NCBI GenBank assembly: GCA_034667725.1
Contig: JAXDQS010000010.1
Coordinates: 423,171-487,170 of the forward strand
Source: Thermoplasmata archaeon
GTDB lineage: Archaea > Thermoplasmatota > E2 > JACPAO01 > JAHFTW01
Reading direction: 5' to 3'
Length of the DNA stretch: 64,000 bases
Part shown: in pieces, positions 8,483 to 54,569 of the stretch
How the letters are laid out: every line of letters begins with the position of its first letter
Numbering within the stretch: position 1 is the stretch's first letter
Made by a program: the position numbers and the translations under genes
The notes under the pieces: generated by a model
Databases searched by the model: none
What the model was told of the DNA's origin: nothing
Seen by the model: the letters and a program-made list of their open reading frames with translations, nothing else

Positions 8483-8842
8483 ATGCCCTTGCTTCACCGG
8501 AGTGAAGTGGCCCGGCTCCCCGTCCGCAACGACTGCATCTGCACCGTCGGCGGCCTCATCGACCTCGTCGGCAAGAAGTGGACGATGTGCATCATCGTGA
8601 CCCTGGGCAACCGCCCCGCCATCCGCTTCAACGAGCTGCGCGACACCTTGGTCGGCATCAGCCCGCGCACGCTGTCCGAGACCCTCAAGGCGCTGGAGTC
8701 GGAAGGCCTGGTGCGGCGCGAGGCGTTCGCCGCCATCCCGCCCCGCGTCGAGTACCGGCTCACCGACGAAGGCGCCAGGCTGCGCGAGGCGGTGCGGCCG
8801 CTGATGGAGTATGCGGCAGGAAGGCCTGGGGCAGTCTGCTGA
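8483..8842 (+). CDS. HxlR/DUF24-family winged-helix regulator
   Basis: LVGKKWTMCI, RFNELR, ISPRTLSETLKALE, PPRVEYRLT; N-terminal DCIC. Confidence 0.9.
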   Translation: MPLLHRSEVARLPVRNDCICTVGGLIDLVGKKWTMCIIVTLGNRPAIRFNELRDTLVGISPRTLSETLKALESEGLVRREAFAAIPPRVEYRLTDEGARLREAVRPLMEYAAGRPGAVC

Positions 8843-8846
8843 ACGG

Positions 8847-8999
8847 GCGTGGAGGGTCGCGCGTCGGCGCGCGCCGAACGCGAAGCGGAGGCGATGGGTG
8901 GGTGGCTCGCGGAGCGAAAGCCACCCGCCAAGGGGTCCTAGGGGCGAAGCCCCTAGATGGGGTGCGCGGCTGGAAGGCCGGGGGCCGTCTGCTGAACGG
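8847..8999 (+). repeat. GNA-hairpin element followed by a recoded duplicate of the HxlR 3' end
   Basis: Hairpins GGGTGGCT..AGCCACCC and CTAGGGGCGAAGCCCCTAG; 8966-8999 matches 8813-8846 with 3 synonymous changes. Confidence 0.85.
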
Positions 9000-14354: not shown

Positions 14355-14357
14355 CGG

Positions 14358-14417
14358 ACCACGGATTGCACGGATTCCACGGACCAGAGGTTCCGTGCAA
14401 TCCGTGGCATCCGTGGT
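14358..14417. repeat. Palindromic CACGG repeat, copy 1
   Basis: (CACGGA-N3)x3 followed by its inverse (TCCGTG)x3. Confidence 0.85.
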
Positions 14418-23743: not shown

Positions 23744-23805
23744 GACCACGGATTTCACGGATTGCACGGAACCAAGTTTCCGTGGCATCCGTGCAATCCG
23801 TGGTC
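23744..23805. repeat. Palindromic CACGG repeat, copy 2
   Basis: Same 3x9-nt arms as 14358-14417; between convergent genes. Confidence 0.85.
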
Positions 23806-24202
23806 AGGTCGGCGGGCGTTGCGCCCCGACCTCGTCCTCGGCCCGCGCCGCCTCCAGCACCTGCTTGCCGAAGACCAGGCCCAAGGCACCGAACGCGATC
23901 GACAGCACGAAGCTCACGACCGCCATGGCGCCGAGGTACATGCTGGTGGGGTGCAGGAAGACGTTGCACGACAAGGTGCGCGTCCCCGTGACGTTGGAGG
24001 AGGCGTCGAGCTGGTCCACGCAGCCCGTGTTGCCGGTGGCGCCGCCGTAGAGCAGCCAGATCCCCAGCAGCACGACGCAGCCGAAGAACAGCTTGTTCAT
24101 CCAGATGGCGCCGGTGCGGCAGGCCCGGTACGGCAGCCCCTCGCGCACGATGAAGCGGGACTCCTGCAGGACCTCGGGCTTGTCGCTCAACGGCCGGGCC
24201 AC
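23804..24202 (-). CDS. Hypothetical two-TM protein
   Basis: 132 aa, two TM helices around a Cys-containing loop. Confidence 0.65.
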   Translation of the reverse strand: MARPLSDKPEVLQESRFIVREGLPYRACRTGAIWMNKLFFGCVVLLGIWLLYGGATGNTGCVDQLDASSNVTGTRTLSCNVFLHPTSMYLGAMAVVSFVLSIAFGALGLVFGKQVLEAARAEDEVGAQRPPT

Positions 24203-34697: not shown

Positions 34698-34764
34698 CGC
34701 CCAATGAGTCGGGTGCGGCTAGAAAAGCCGAGCCGGGGACGTGGTTGGCCGGGGGCCGCCGCGC

Positions 34765-34898
34765 ACGCGAAGCGAAAGCCCGCAGGGCTTTCGCGAACGG
34801 GTTGCGATGCGAAGCGAGCAACCTTCAGCGCCCTAGCCGGCTGGGGGTCCGGGGCGCGCAGCGCCCCGGCTCGCAGGCGGACAGGCGGAGCCTGTCCG
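34765..34898 (+). repeat. GNA-triloop hairpin element (REP-like)
   Basis: Four hairpins with C-GCA/GAA/GGA-G loops; GCGAAGCG motifs. Confidence 0.8.
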
Positions 34899-34900
34899 TG

Positions 34901-39359: not shown

Positions 39360-39462
39360 TCAGTCGACTAGCAGGCGGGCGCCGGCGCAGTGGGACGGGC
39401 CGGCCTGCGGCCGAGCCCTATGCACCCTTCCGCCGCCCGGGCCGTGGGCGACCTCGCTTCGC
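39360..39462 (-). repeat. GNA-hairpin element followed by a recoded duplicate of the rps15 3' end
   Basis: 39360-39388 matches 39463-39491 with 2 synonymous changes. Confidence 0.85.
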
Positions 39463-39894
39463 TCAGTCGACCAGCAGCCGGGCGCCGGCGCGGGTGTAAT
39501 TCCACGCCTCGGGCAGCTCGCCGCGCGACTGGTAGTACTTGGCGAGGCCGCGGATGCGGGCCTCCATCAGCTCCAGGCCGCGCAGGTTGTGCAGGTCGCG
39601 CGAGTTGCCGGCCAGGTGCTCCTGGAGGTGGATGGCGCGCTGGACCAGGTTCTGCAGGTCCTGGGGCAGCTTGCCGGAGATGCCGGCGTCGCGCATGATC
39701 TGGACGATCTTCTTGCCGGTGAGCTCCTGGACCGACGGGATGCCGTAGGAGTCGCGCAGGATGAGGCCGATGACGGCCGGCTGGCGGCCCTGCTTGGCCA
39801 ACTCCACGACCTTCGCCTCGGCCTCGCGGGGCAGCATGGGGACCCAGGACGGGGCGTTCTCGCGGACGGGCTTCGAGCTGGCGTGGCCGGACAT
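39463..39894 (-). CDS. rps15: 30S ribosomal protein S15 (uS15, S15P/S13e)
   Basis: IGLILRDSYGIP, LPQDL, DLHNLRGLELMEARIRGLAKYY. Confidence 0.95.
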   Translation of the reverse strand: MSGHASSKPVRENAPSWVPMLPREAEAKVVELAKQGRQPAVIGLILRDSYGIPSVQELTGKKIVQIMRDAGISGKLPQDLQNLVQRAIHLQEHLAGNSRDLHNLRGLELMEARIRGLAKYYQSRGELPEAWNYTRAGARLLVD

Positions 39895-40445: not shown

Positions 40446-41726
40446 CTACGAGAGCCAGAGCAGGCCGGCCGCCATTAGCAGCCCCGCCACCAGGTGCAGG
40501 CCGATGGTGGTGGCGCTGCCCTTGATGAGCGTCCGGTCGGCGTAGTGGCGCACGACGATCATGCTGGCGTAGGCGGCCAGCGGGACCGCGAGCAGCGCCA
40601 GCAGGGCGCCCAGGGGGAGGGTGCCGGCGACGACGAGGGCGGCCGCGGCGGCGAAGCTGGCGGCCACGATGAGGACGTAGCCCCAGCGGGCGCGCTCGGT
40701 GCCGAGGGCGACGACGAGGTGGGTCTTGCCGGTGGCCTTGTCGCTGGGGGCGTCCGGGAACTCGTTGACCCACAGGATGGCCATGGTGAGGAAGCCGATG
40801 GGCAGGCCGAGGAGCCCGGCGTCGGCGCCGAGGTGGCCGGTCATGGCGTAGACCGCGCCGGCGGTCATGAGGGGGCCGAAGCAGGTGAACGAGGCCAGCT
40901 CGCCCAGGCCGCGGCGGGCCGCGAGCCGGAGGGGCGGGGCGGTGTAGAAGAAGCCCAGCAGGGCGCCGCCGGCGCCGAAGGCGAGGACCCACGGACGGTC
41001 CAGGAACAGCAGGGCGATGCCGCAGGCGAGGCCGGCCAGGAGGGCGCCGGTGGCGATGCCGAACAGGGTGCGGGGCTGGACGAGGCCGAGCTCGACGGCG
41101 CGGGAGCCGCCGGTGAACGGCAGGAAGTAGTCGTTGTTGGCCTGGTCGGTGCCGGCCCGCCAGTCGAAGTAGTCGTTGAAGATGTTGGCCGCGAGGTGGA
41201 GCGCGATGCCGCCGGCGAGGGTGAGCGCGAAGGTGAGGGGGTCGAGCGGGAGGCCGCGCCAGGCGGAGTAGGCGGCGGCCAGCAGGATGGGGACCAGGGT
41301 GGCGGTCAGGAACGGCAGGCGGCCGACGACCACACCCTTGAAGATCCGGACGCCGACCGTGGTCTTGGGGCGGACGGACTCAGGATCCACGTCGGGGAGG
41401 GCGCGGGTCTGGCCGCAGTAGCCGATCTGCTTGCCGTCCTTCATGGTGGGGGTGATGCGGATGTGCGCCGCCACCGAGCTGCCGTCCTTGCGCACGAACA
41501 CGGTGTCGGTCTCGAACTCGCCCTTCTCGCGGGCCGCCTTGAGCCACTTGGGGACGTGGCCGAGGACGATCTCGCCCGGGGAGAACAGGGAGACGCGCTT
41601 CTTGCCGACCACTTCCTCCGGGGTGTAGCCAAAGAGCGCCTCGGCGCCGGCGTTGAAGGTCTCGATGCGGCCTTCCATGTCGCAGGTGATGACGGACGGG
41701 AGGGCACCAGCAGAGGGGCGGGCCAT
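40446..41726 (-). CDS. menA: PAS domain fused to MenA/UbiA-family prenyltransferase
   Basis: PAS (FNAGAEALFGY..VRKDG); then RLPFL, NIFNDYFD..GTD, NEFPDAPSDKATGK. Confidence 0.85.
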   Translation of the reverse strand: MARPSAGALPSVITCDMEGRIETFNAGAEALFGYTPEEVVGKKRVSLFSPGEIVLGHVPKWLKAAREKGEFETDTVFVRKDGSSVAAHIRITPTMKDGKQIGYCGQTRALPDVDPESVRPKTTVGVRIFKGVVVGRLPFLTATLVPILLAAAYSAWRGLPLDPLTFALTLAGGIALHLAANIFNDYFDWRAGTDQANNDYFLPFTGGSRAVELGLVQPRTLFGIATGALLAGLACGIALLFLDRPWVLAFGAGGALLGFFYTAPPLRLAARRGLGELASFTCFGPLMTAGAVYAMTGHLGADAGLLGLPIGFLTMAILWVNEFPDAPSDKATGKTHLVVALGTERARWGYVLIVAASFAAAAALVVAGTLPLGALLALLAVPLAAYASMIVVRHYADRTLIKGSATTIGLHLVAGLLMAAGLLWLS

Positions 41727-41801
41727 GCCTGCGCTCACCCCTGGGAAGGGATAAGGCTGGCCGTTGGAAACAACTTGTCCGGAGTTGTTTCGCGCGCCGG
41801 C

Positions 41802-43499
41802 ATGTTGGGCCACAATCCTTTCCTGGAGGACCCCGTGCCCGCCGCAATGGCGCGCGCCCAGCCCGAGCAGCATGTCATCCCGTTCAACGAGCAGCTCCTG
41901 AAGCCCGCGGCCACGCCGGCCCCTTCCAAGGCCGAAGCCGGGCTGGTGCGCCCCCTTGCCGCGAAGCCGCGCGCCAGGCCGGCCACCGTCCCCAAGCCCC
42001 GTCCCCCACGCGCCGTCTTCGTCGTCCACGGCATGGGCCAGCAGGTCCCGTTCGAGACCCTCGACCTGGTCTACCAAGGCCTGCAGCACGAGGAGACCGC
42101 CCGCGGCGACGGCCCGCCCGCCCTACTGACGCCCAAGCCGGTCGAGGAGGTCATCGCGGGCACCAAGGTGCGGCGCCTCGAGGTCACGCTGGCCGCCGGC
42201 ACGCCCCAGGAACGCCAAGTCCACCTCTACGAGGGCTACTGGGCGCCGCTCACCGAGGGCCGCGTGACCCTGCGCGACGTCGTGGCGTTCCTGGCAAGCG
42301 GCGCCGGCAACGGCCTCCGCAACGCCTTCGGGCGGCGGCAGAAATGGCGGTTCGACAAGTTCCGCCAACCCTGGGTCTTCGGCCTGCCGCTCGTCCAACT
42401 GCTGGTGACGTCGCTGGCGCTCGCCAGCCTGCTCGGGCTCGCGGCCGCGTCCACCGCCACCTTCGCCGCCGCCGTCACCGGCACCGGCATGCCCTTGGGC
42501 ATCGTCTCGGACCTGACCTGGCTGGCCGCCTTCATCCTGGCCCCCGCCATCGCCATGGCCGTCCTCATGGGCGCCTCCTCCGCCGGCAAGCGCCTGGGAT
42601 GGCGCAAGCGCCTGGCGCGGCGGGTCCGCGTCGCCGAGGACAACCGGCGGCCGATGCCGCGCGTGCCCGCCCTCGCCCTCGTGCTCGACGCGCTCGGGAT
42701 GCTGGCGCTCCTGGCCACCGTGCTGGCGGCCGCCGCCGTCCCCTTCCTGGCGGCCTGGGCGGCCCTGTCCTGGGCCAAGGGCGCCTCCTGGCTTCCCATG
42801 CTCGACATCCGGGCCTCGTTCGTCGTCTGGGGCCTCCTCGTCCTGCTGGTGGCCGTCGCCCGCCGCGTCCTCGTCCAGACCCTCGGCGACGTCGCCGCCT
42901 TCGTCAACACCCACAAGCTCGACCGCTTCAACGAGCTGCGCGACGAGATCAAGCGCACCGTCCGCAAGGTCGCGATGGCCGTCTACGACGCCAAGGACGC
43001 CCAAGGCGGGCCCCGCTACGACGCGGTCTGCATCATGGGCCACAGCCTCGGCAGCGTCGTCGCCTACAGCACCCTCAACGACCTCGTCAACGAGGACGAC
43101 GACGTCGAAGGCCAGTCGCGCGGCGTTCTCGCCCGCACCCCGCTTCTGCTGACCTTCGGGTCGCCGCTTGCCAAGACCTCCTTCATCTACGGCCTCCAGC
43201 GCAGCAAGACCAGCGCCACCCGCGAGGCGCTCGCCGGCCTCGTGCAGCCCCTCATCCAGAAGTACGACTACCGCACCATGGAGTGGATCAACCTGCACGC
43301 CCGCGCCGACATCATCAGCGGCCGGCTCCGCCCCGAGTACGACGACGAGGAGGCCGCCTTGGACCACGAGAAGGAAGGCAAGGTCGCCAAGCGCGTCCAG
43401 GACCTGCGCGACCCGCACGCCACCACCCCGCTGCTCGCCCACAACGAATACTGGCGCAACCCGCTGCTGTGGCGGGAGCTGCGCAGCCGCCTGGTTTGA
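41802..43499 (+). CDS. Alpha/beta-hydrolase with inserted TM helices
   Basis: VHGMGQQ, GHSLG, TFGSPL, terminal HNEYW; central hydrophobic block. Confidence 0.75.
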   Translation: MLGHNPFLEDPVPAAMARAQPEQHVIPFNEQLLKPAATPAPSKAEAGLVRPLAAKPRARPATVPKPRPPRAVFVVHGMGQQVPFETLDLVYQGLQHEETARGDGPPALLTPKPVEEVIAGTKVRRLEVTLAAGTPQERQVHLYEGYWAPLTEGRVTLRDVVAFLASGAGNGLRNAFGRRQKWRFDKFRQPWVFGLPLVQLLVTSLALASLLGLAAASTATFAAAVTGTGMPLGIVSDLTWLAAFILAPAIAMAVLMGASSAGKRLGWRKRLARRVRVAEDNRRPMPRVPALALVLDALGMLALLATVLAAAAVPFLAAWAALSWAKGASWLPMLDIRASFVVWGLLVLLVAVARRVLVQTLGDVAAFVNTHKLDRFNELRDEIKRTVRKVAMAVYDAKDAQGGPRYDAVCIMGHSLGSVVAYSTLNDLVNEDDDVEGQSRGVLARTPLLLTFGSPLAKTSFIYGLQRSKTSATREALAGLVQPLIQKYDYRTMEWINLHARADIISGRLRPEYDDEEAALDHEKEGKVAKRVQDLRDPHATTPLLAHNEYWRNPLLWRELRSRLV

Positions 43500-43813
43500 G
43501 GCGGACCCGCTTCATGCCGGCAGCGGCCCCCCACGGCGCTGCGCGCCGCGGGGCCCGCTTCGCGGCGCGCGCTCGCTGCGGCGCCGGGCATGGCGGGACG
43601 TGCCTCAATGCGCCAAGGAAGCCTCGCTGCGCTCGGCTTCACTTCTCGGGCACTTTGAGGCGGACCCGCTTCATGCCCGCCGCTGCCCCCCACGGCGCTG
43701 CGCGCCGCGGGGTCCGCTTCGCTTGCGCCCGCTTCGCGGCGCGCGCTCGCTGCCGCTTCGGTGCTGTCGCGCGCGCCTTCGGTGCCGAGGTCGCGCGCTC
43801 GCTGCGCTCGCGG
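43495..43813 (-). repeat. Two-unit array: hairpin element plus recoded copy of the 3' end of gene 43814-45037
   Basis: 43639-43686 encodes AAAGMKRVRLKVPEK*; 43495-43527 encodes AAAGMKRVRLK; each is preceded by CGGCGCGCAGCGCCG-TGGGGG. Confidence 0.85.
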
Positions 43814-45037
43814 CTACTTCTCGGGGACCTTCAAGCGGACGCGCTTCATCCCCGAAGCGGCCTTCTGCCACCCCTCAACACGCTTGGCCGTGATCTTGGT
43901 GCCCAGCACGTTGGTCTCGAGGCTGTCGAGGTAGGCGTTGACCTGGTCGGCGACGGCCTCGCCGCTGCGCTTCTTCAGTTCGGCGATGCCTTGGATGCCG
44001 GCGCGGGCCATGGCCTCGGCGTACTGCTTGCCGACGCCCTTGACCTTGATGAGCTCGGCCATGGACTTCCATTGCTCGACGGTCTTGACGGGGACCTGCA
44101 TGCGGCGGGCGAGGTCTTCGGCCTCCTCGTAGGCGAGGCGGGCGGTGGTCTCGATGCCCAGGTCGCGCAGCTTCTGGCCGTAGATGCGGCCGATGCCTTC
44201 GATCTCCTCGACCTCGTGGGTGTCGCCGGCGTAGTCGTAGTAGGCGCGGGTCTCGCTGGCGGCCTTGGGCTTGCGGGCGCCGGCGATGGTGGCGTCCAGT
44301 TCCTGGAGGTAGGCGCGGGAGCCGCCCGTGGTCGTGGTGACCTCGACGGTCTGGGTGGTGGTGGAGCTCGACTCGCTGGACTCGGCCATGAGCTCCTGGG
44401 CGGCGGACTCCTCGGGGAACAGGCGGGCGCGCAGGTGCTCCGGGATCTTCTTGGGGTCGACCTCGGTCTTGGGCTTCTGGCTGTTCTTGATGGGCAATTC
44501 CTTCTTCTGGGCCTCGGGCGGGCCGGCGATGAGGATGCGCATCTTGAGCTGGGTGCCCTGGTTGTCGATCGGGATGTAGCTGTTGGTGTAGACCGCGGAC
44601 TCGACGGTGCGGGGGAAGACGTAGGGGACGACCTTGGTCTTGCGGTCCTTCTTCTCCCAGGCGCGGTACATGTGCGGGATGGTGGGGAGGTTGTAGACCA
44701 CGATGTCGGGGCCCTTGCCAAGGTTGTCGGGCTCGACCAGGCTGTTCTCGTAGGCCTCGAGGCGGGCGCGCTCGGCGGCCAGGGCGTCCTCGTCGGGGTT
44801 GAGGGCGGCGCGGCGCTTGCGCTCCTCGGAGCTGCGCACCAGCAGGAGCAGGAACAGGACGATGACGACCAGCAGCAGGATGACGGCCGTCACCAGCACC
44901 CACAGGTTCACTTCCTTGAGGAACGGGATGCCGGGGTCGTTTTGCGACTTGGCGTAGAGGAGGAACAGGAAACCGAGGAAGGTCAGCACGGCAAGCGTGA
45001 ACAGGACAGTGCCAAAGATGCGCTTGCCGCTTGCCAT
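43814..45037 (-). CDS. Membrane-anchored protein with C-terminal helix-hairpin-helix (DUF4332-like) domain
   Basis: Two TMs; EEIEGIG..KLRDLGI; KVKGVGKQYAE. Confidence 0.75.
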   Translation of the reverse strand: MASGKRIFGTVLFTLAVLTFLGFLFLLYAKSQNDPGIPFLKEVNLWVLVTAVILLLVVIVLFLLLLVRSSEERKRRAALNPDEDALAAERARLEAYENSLVEPDNLGKGPDIVVYNLPTIPHMYRAWEKKDRKTKVVPYVFPRTVESAVYTNSYIPIDNQGTQLKMRILIAGPPEAQKKELPIKNSQKPKTEVDPKKIPEHLRARLFPEESAAQELMAESSESSSTTTQTVEVTTTTGGSRAYLQELDATIAGARKPKAASETRAYYDYAGDTHEVEEIEGIGRIYGQKLRDLGIETTARLAYEEAEDLARRMQVPVKTVEQWKSMAELIKVKGVGKQYAEAMARAGIQGIAELKKRSGEAVADQVNAYLDSLETNVLGTKITAKRVEGWQKAASGMKRVRLKVPEK

Positions 45038-54507: not shown

Positions 54508-54569
54508 AACCACGGATTGCACGGACCGCACGGAACCTTGGTTCCGTGTCCTCCGTGGCATCCGTGGTT
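54508..54569. repeat. Palindromic CACGG repeat, copy 3
   Basis: Same architecture as copies 1 and 2; between convergent genes. Confidence 0.85.

Follow-up and report, generated by a model that had tools for sequence, protein, structure and literature searches.

We find that, in an archaeon, the 3' ends of many genes are repeated downstream around short hairpin-bearing insertions, and that one class of these insertions contains an antisense copy of the very gene end it accompanies. The window analysed here is a stretch of 64,000 nucleotides (nt) from contig JAXDQS010000010.1 of assembly GCA_034667725.1, in which an initial annotation had flagged a gene followed by diverged copies of its own end. 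Homologues assign the organism to Thermoplasmatota, the phylum that contains Thermoplasmata, and the genome is a soil assembly of 2.3 Mb with 71% GC that is 90% complete. In the antisense-bearing class, each unit consists of a gene end with its stop codon, a mini-hairpin, an antisense copy of that end, and a tail of about 50 nt with two hairpins; the antisense stretch reaches exactly to the insertion point and changes in step with the end that the unit carries. We lean towards the interpretation that these units are mobile cassettes of 100-190 nt that encode no protein, travel as single-stranded DNA, and insert at a site defined by base pairing. We place them as a new variant of gene-end-replacing insertion elements.

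The flagged gene encodes a membrane-anchored protein of 407 amino acids (aa), and a 13-codon core from its end is found again 175 nt downstream. Re-reading the sequence bears out the coordinates and difference counts of the initial annotation: the gene end and the copy at 43677-43639 differ at 8 nucleotides, every one silent, stop codon included; just upstream of this core, AAS in the gene reads AAA in the copy; and a truncated third copy is present at 43527-43495. The 21-nt motif that had been noticed there has only 2 matches, just ahead of the two copies (0.12 expected). The locus resolves into two units, each with a 48-nt gene end, a hairpin, an interrupted antisense copy, and a two-hairpin tail of 50-65 nt, arranged as follows:

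43814..45037, minus strand: host gene, membrane-anchored DUF4332/HhH protein, 407 aa
43814..43861, minus strand: working gene end (T0), last 15 codons and stop; codons rare for the genome are abundant
43687..43813, minus strand: element 1, 127 nt, with apex hairpin, antisense stretch, and tail
43752..43789, minus strand: antisense of unit 1, an interrupted copy of T0
43687..43751, minus strand: tail of unit 1, 65 nt, with GNA hairpin(s), a GCGGAC motif, and a terminal GCA-loop stem (43712-43688)
43639..43686, minus strand: displaced end (T1), 15 codons and stop, the end carried by the older unit 2
43528..43638, minus strand: element 2, 111 nt
43578..43621, minus strand: antisense of unit 2, an interrupted copy of T1 that ends at the first base of T1
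43528..43577, minus strand: tail of unit 2, 50 nt, with the same terminal stem as unit 1 (43553-43529)
43495..43527, minus strand: outermost displaced end (T2), cut off after 11 codons

Over its last 10 nt the unit 1 antisense is fully complementary to the first 10 nt of T0, and its pairing is 12/14 with T0 versus 8/14 with the displaced copy; T0 probably came in together with unit 1. For both window units a long rod folds only when the upstream end is included (z of -2.5 and -5.1 versus 0.0), and a window element folded without its upstream end is not unusual. The terminal stem of unit 1 adjoins the next gene-end copy, is common to an element at a tRNA-Thr gene, and is kin to the stems of NusA, secY, and tRNA-Gly elements. 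T2 contains the stop codon of a convergent 1001-aa open reading frame (ORF; 40494-43499), for which we find no Pfam match.

A scan of all called genes identifies 28 genes (32 units) whose last 5-30 codons are repeated 70-330 nt downstream; beyond these, secY, one other gene, and several tRNAs have a repeated 3' end. The inserts between the repeats are short (about 40-130 nt) and hairpin-bearing. The initial annotation had counted 13 of 13 differences as synonymous in three aligned cores, a figure that is flattered by the limits chosen for those cores: just beyond them lie an S/A change at the flagged gene and two amino-acid changes at HxlR. The synonymous excess itself is real. With repeats detected from nucleotides alone, blind to codons, and four chance matches inside coding sequence taken out by hand, 25 loci give 64 synonymous versus 29 non-synonymous codons, where random changes should be about 24% synonymous; two loci with poor alignments contribute 16 of the 29. 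Plain duplication followed by decay predicts, by our estimate, at most about 40% synonymous differences. The codon differences are third-position changes of all kinds. Additionally, codon usage is poorer than in matched genes both within the in-gene ends (p about 0.01) and in the 10 codons above them (p about 0.006), which is consistent with import of the end and some upstream co-conversion.

The loops in the units are of the DNA type. Inserts abound in C-GNA-G triloop hairpins, with 41 GNA triloops on the coding strand of the units versus 2 on the other, there is no excess of GNRA tetraloops in the units, and the commonest intergenic triloops are GAA, GCA, and GGA. GNA-type mini-hairpins are far more stable in DNA than in RNA and are found at single-strand origins (PMC13037366). 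Rfam gives no match at the ten loci scanned, the window locus and nine others outside the two tRNA arrays. No short unit contains an ORF, and none was found between the repeats at about 40 loci in relatives.

The units fall into two classes. In the first, comprising families A-C, a single element sequence occurs in either orientation at many unrelated genes and tRNAs; the duplications are 11-94 nt long and may include non-coding DNA, several pairs are near-identical, and no antisense was detected in these families. In the second, which includes the flagged gene and rps15, the order is gene end, small hairpin, interrupted antisense, about 50 nt with two hairpins, and displaced end. The initial annotation had treated HxlR (8483-8842), rps15 (39463-39894), and the flagged gene as one architecture; the duplications are real at all three, but the loci do not form one family. 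The two others are:

8803..8995, plus strand: duplication at HxlR, surrounding an element of "family A" that is about 110 nt long, has about ten genomic copies, and in which no antisense was detected
39360..39489, minus strand: rps15 unit of the antisense-bearing class, with a 27-nt end, a 76-nt element, and the displaced end followed by the original flank

In a blind test restricted to the 40-66 nt before the junction, a stretch matching the complement of the duplication's first bases at 10 or more of 12 positions was present in 8 of 33 units (0.31 expected). The antisense ends 0/+1 nt from the start of the duplication in 17 of 27 aligned units, several of the other 10 being misregistered by their anchors. 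Among 26 units picked by hand from five genomes, 23 have a tail of 47-65 nt. Pairing of the antisense favours the upstream end in 13 of these 26 and the displaced end in none, with ties in the 13 whose copies barely differ, a count whose register was set on the upstream copy; symmetric alignment scores agree with the preference, and discrimination counts from four misregistered alignments (102:8) were left out. Because the antisense pairs better with the upstream working end, we conclude that the unit carries its replacement end. In an AAA-ATPase array each antisense follows its own upstream variant, and across units G-T opposites exceed A-C opposites by 16:7 in the pairing of end and antisense. 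One terminal stem serves the flagged gene, a tRNA-Thr, NusA, secY, and others, so the tail is reused with different addresses. No sense-strand match of an element to its target was detected. The scaffold-plus-guide idea of the initial annotation thus holds in part: a target-matching stretch exists, but it is an internal antisense copy that had been missed and not the downstream copy. The companion suggestion that the resident gene was recoded to escape is contradicted, since it is the resident end, and not the displaced one, that the antisense fits more closely.

Several loci depart from the usual layout. In a unit on contig C4 near 25620 (L075), the carried end lacks a stop, and the frame reads through the element to give a new protein C-terminus. 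In a relative (L069, contig C54 near 20600), it is the start of an ABCE1-like gene that is duplicated, with synonymous changes and the element in reverse orientation. On contig C7 (17640-18060), displaced ends of convergent succinate dehydrogenase FeS-like and DedA-like genes are joined back to back and adjoin a repeat array, and a glyoxalase-like gene lies between the first pair.

Comparison of relatives demonstrates that units are present in some alleles and absent from others and that arrays vary in length. At the flagged locus, a relative 88% identical has an empty allele with ordinary codons, and the duplication is also missing in more distant relatives. Conversely, a single contig of another study, about 93% identical and with a depth of about 5, repeats the layout and adds, between the gene and a unit like that of the window, a further element of 82 nt and a repeat of 52 nt. 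The rps15 gene is filled in 3 of 13 genomes of the genus, at three different junctions, each with matching antisense, and its displaced copy keeps the original stop followed by the flank seen in empty alleles. Filled alleles of secY occur in five genomes and empty ones in two; of the arrays in two sister genomes, one has the sister's element plus a newer one beside the gene. The array at NusA is nested, a short, more recent unit interrupting the end that an older one carries, and in a tandem pair of GuaA-like genes, the displaced end matches the end of the neighbouring paralogue and not the working end. Further arrays lie at tRNAs on contigs C4 and C5. These cases show a unit to be a replacement end plus an element, with the working gene as the place where new units come in. 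The empty alleles, the nested arrays, and the displaced rps15 copy support the proposal in the initial annotation of a non-autonomous element that repeatedly brings in a replacement 3' end. Pattern scans of viral, genome, and metagenome collections returned almost entirely chance matches, the genuine ones being from Thermoplasmatota, and the flagged host gene was not found in viral contigs.

Based on these data, we propose the following route. When the coding strand is single-stranded it would fold, the antisense pairing with the gene end. A nuclease and ligase activity acting in trans would cut at the foot of the stem formed by end and antisense and again after the terminal hairpin, which would free a small single-stranded circle and leave the gene sealed and whole. 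On reaching another cell or allele, the antisense would pair with the same gene end and the reaction would reverse, pushing the old end downstream. The carried end would always be translated and the displaced end translated until its displacement, so that the copies would differ as orthologues do, synonymously; descent of both copies from translated alleles would thus produce the synonymous excess without any recoding. Reuse of the tail with new antisense stretches, perhaps made by snap-back synthesis off the apex hairpin, could direct the family to further tRNAs and genes that are unrelated. Candidate enzymes are flap or junction nucleases of the host, together with a ligase. More tentatively, we suggest that these are re-programmable single-stranded DNA cassettes in which a built-in antisense of 15-45 nt sets both excision point and target, and with which an undescribed or ordinary host nuclease and ligase may replace the ends of tRNAs and essential genes with those of other archaeal lineages.

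Several observations weigh against this route. No circle, excision joint, or enzyme was observed in the material, which consists of assembled contigs. Families A-C, which make up over half of the duplications, are biased to synonymous changes although no antisense can be detected in them, so antisense is not required for the synonymous pattern. Codon quality is not clearly better in either copy (56 versus 40), and the 13:0 preference carries the register noted above. At the flagged locus the outermost copy reads AAA and the closest empty relative AAS, the flank there being rearranged and the copy truncated; that the outermost copy is the original one is shown at rps15 and GuaA only. Finally, the Y1 transposase (PF01797) was not found in 32 family genomes, which are incomplete, and reverse transcriptase, TnpB (PF07282), and IS110 (PF02371) were not found in this 90% complete genome.

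Among other explanations, families A-C are best fitted by long target-site duplication, in which a nuclease or transposase acting in trans inserts the element and strains then exchange alleles; here the antisense would be a snap-back by-product retained for the stability of mRNA or tRNA 3' ends and would play no part in choosing the site. One sequence at many unrelated targets, the lack of antisense, duplications of 11-94 nt, and near-identical pairs all speak for it, and insertion with a long variable duplication is already known (PMC2853133). As an account of the whole system we consider it unlikely, for it leaves unexplained the fixed distance of 47-65 nt from antisense to junction, the exact register, the compensatory changes, and the three rps15 junctions that each have a matching antisense. 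The least credible explanation, to which we give almost no weight, is strain-chimeric assembly or chance repeats. The genome does come from a soil metagenome; however, a single Logan contig of the probable source run spans the flagged locus with zero differences (from the same reads and so not independent, although a second assembler agrees), the layout recurs in other studies and genomes, and covariation of the antisense cannot arise by mis-assembly.

Two further explanations assign the antisense a different role. The units could be a guide RNA or RNA intermediate, scaffold plus antisense guide, for an RNA-guided recombinase, nuclease, or reverse transcriptase encoded elsewhere, with the resident end recoded to escape. 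A conserved scaffold with a variable target-matching stretch would suit this, as would the poor codons in the in-gene ends and the 10 codons above, and the 16:7 bias to G-T opposites is compatible with RNA or DNA. We regard it as quite unlikely, given that the antisense matches the resident end best, the escape part is already refuted, the loops are of the DNA type, Rfam has no match, and none of reverse transcriptase, TnpB, and IS110 was found in this genome. Attachment sites that fold from single-stranded DNA are familiar from attP of CTX phage and attC of integrons, and the stem of end and antisense might be such a site, recombined by a host or viral tyrosine recombinase. Targets in tRNA T-arms and replacement ends are typical of tyrosine integrases, and the stem is long and bulged. 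This we find very unlikely: no sequence is common to the targets, the junction is at the foot of the stem and not within it, and the sole integrase found belongs to an ordinary tRNA-Pro island.

Each known system that we compared, with one exception, has a defining feature that the cassettes lack. The nearest in outcome are mobile endonuclease ORFs of fungal mitochondria that bring a foreign C-terminus, as in atp6 of Allomyces and atp6, atp9, cox2, and nad3 of Glomus (PMC3630166). As in our units, an in-frame replacement end is supplied, the native end is displaced downstream, the copies are diverged, and the protein is kept. However, the fungal elements carry a LAGLIDADG or GIY-YIG gene and measure about 1 kb (PMC3630166), whereas the cassettes are ORF-free and 100-190 nt long, contain an antisense copy, and sit at dozens of tRNAs and genes unrelated to one another. 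The exception is the tRNA-linked repeats (TLRs, RtT) of E. coli, tandem non-coding units behind tRNA and rRNA genes that end in 18-19 bp of the gene's 3' end and whose origin is unexplained (PMC8144298). The tandem tRNA arrays on contigs C4 and C5 share this layout. TLRs differ in being described only at stable-RNA genes, as RNAs, and the paper on them mentions neither antisense addressing nor protein-gene targets nor synonymous divergence (PMC8144298).

Peel-and-paste transposition of IS608 (IS200/IS605 family) proceeds through single-stranded hairpin ends and a circular junction, with an internal guide that base-pairs with the target, and engineered long guides work (PMC5934647). The cassettes resemble it in their single-strand hairpin ends, with GNA hairpins 41:2 on one strand, and, under the proposed route, in a circular junction and target choice by base pairing. 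The natural IS608 guide, in contrast, is 4 nt and pairs 5' of the cut, where the cassettes have 15-45 nt pairing 3' of the junction. More generally, IS200/IS605 or REP/RAYT elements have a Y1 gene and a fixed target tetranucleotide and make no long duplication; for the cassettes, which bring their target with them, we found no Y1 gene and see duplications of 15-94 nt, a long antisense, and no common junction motif. Integrase-type islands and prophages that occupy the 3' ends of tRNAs or other genes, together with remnants that have lost the integrase, also supply a replacement end, leave a displaced fragment, and accrete in tandem. The cassettes, unlike these, have neither integrase nor cargo, share no att core, and contain an internal antisense. 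The NTS-SRM repeats of the Ssn nuclease are oriented hairpin repeats that act in single-stranded DNA (PMC11893778), with no gene-end duplication described, and no small GIY-YIG gene flanked by such repeats was seen here. The insertions of PMC2853133 share direct repeats longer than usual and the absence of a mobility gene, but carry restriction-modification genes between near-identical repeats. Diversity-generating retroelements are set apart by the failure to find a reverse transcriptase and by differences that are not adenine-specific; OMEGA (TnpB/IscB) or IS110 guide RNAs by the failure to find PF07282 and PF02371 in the genome or any Rfam match; and miniature inverted-repeat elements of DDE transposases by the asymmetric cassette ends and variable duplications. 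In a search of an incomplete literature collection we found no published description of cassettes that encode no protein, carry a gene end, and have an antisense address built in.

The initial annotation had proposed looking for co-occurring enzyme genes, and of those sought, Y1, reverse transcriptase, and TnpB were not found. Three HNH matches, obtained with no search aimed at IscB itself, are not beside elements. Other candidates were considered and rejected. The genome's only GIY-YIG sits in a long UvrC-type frame, and no hairpin-flanked small GIY-YIG was seen in relatives. The one tyrosine integrase found accompanies a small plasmid- or provirus-like island at tRNA-Pro (contig C10, 27011-31624), an ordinary island unrelated to these units. 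A lone DDE transposase gene is on a 3-kb contig without these hairpins (C23), and small contigs of this kind may be contamination. An HNH gene near the secY array (L203:1231-1755, contig C8; L205-L227) is single-copy, vertically kept, and present with or without elements; it occurs in 24 of 31 family genomes at 59-73% identity, in most cases ahead of a chloride-channel-like gene and frequently behind secY. The single GxxExxY gene (PF13366) has its own, different repeats. Vsr-like and MutH-like genes lie beside a tRNA-Leu that bears a family B element in reverse orientation (contig C2, 78100-79450).

If the antisense sets the site, these cassettes would show that an element of about 120 bases can naturally insert at chosen sequences under DNA guidance and without breaks, which to date is known solely from an engineered form of IS608. 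They would also suggest how the tRNA-linked repeats of E. coli arose, in a way that can be tested, and their arrays supply natural pairs of guide and target for in vitro testing. The last codons of conserved marker genes such as rps15, secY, and NusA would be importable, which bears on annotation and phylogeny.

Other repeats were seen alongside these units. Another GNA-hairpin family, of 130-200 nt, faces the 3' end of a convergent gene at about 34700-34900 of the window without duplicating its target, and further members lie on contig C10 near 22800, 109040, 127970, 138270, and 296550. Three copies of a 61-nt imperfect palindrome follow directly on stop codons in the window (14357-14417, 23744-23813, and 54508-54568), and the repeats behind the GxxExxY gene (contig C5 near 135450), which are present in relatives too, are loosely related to it.

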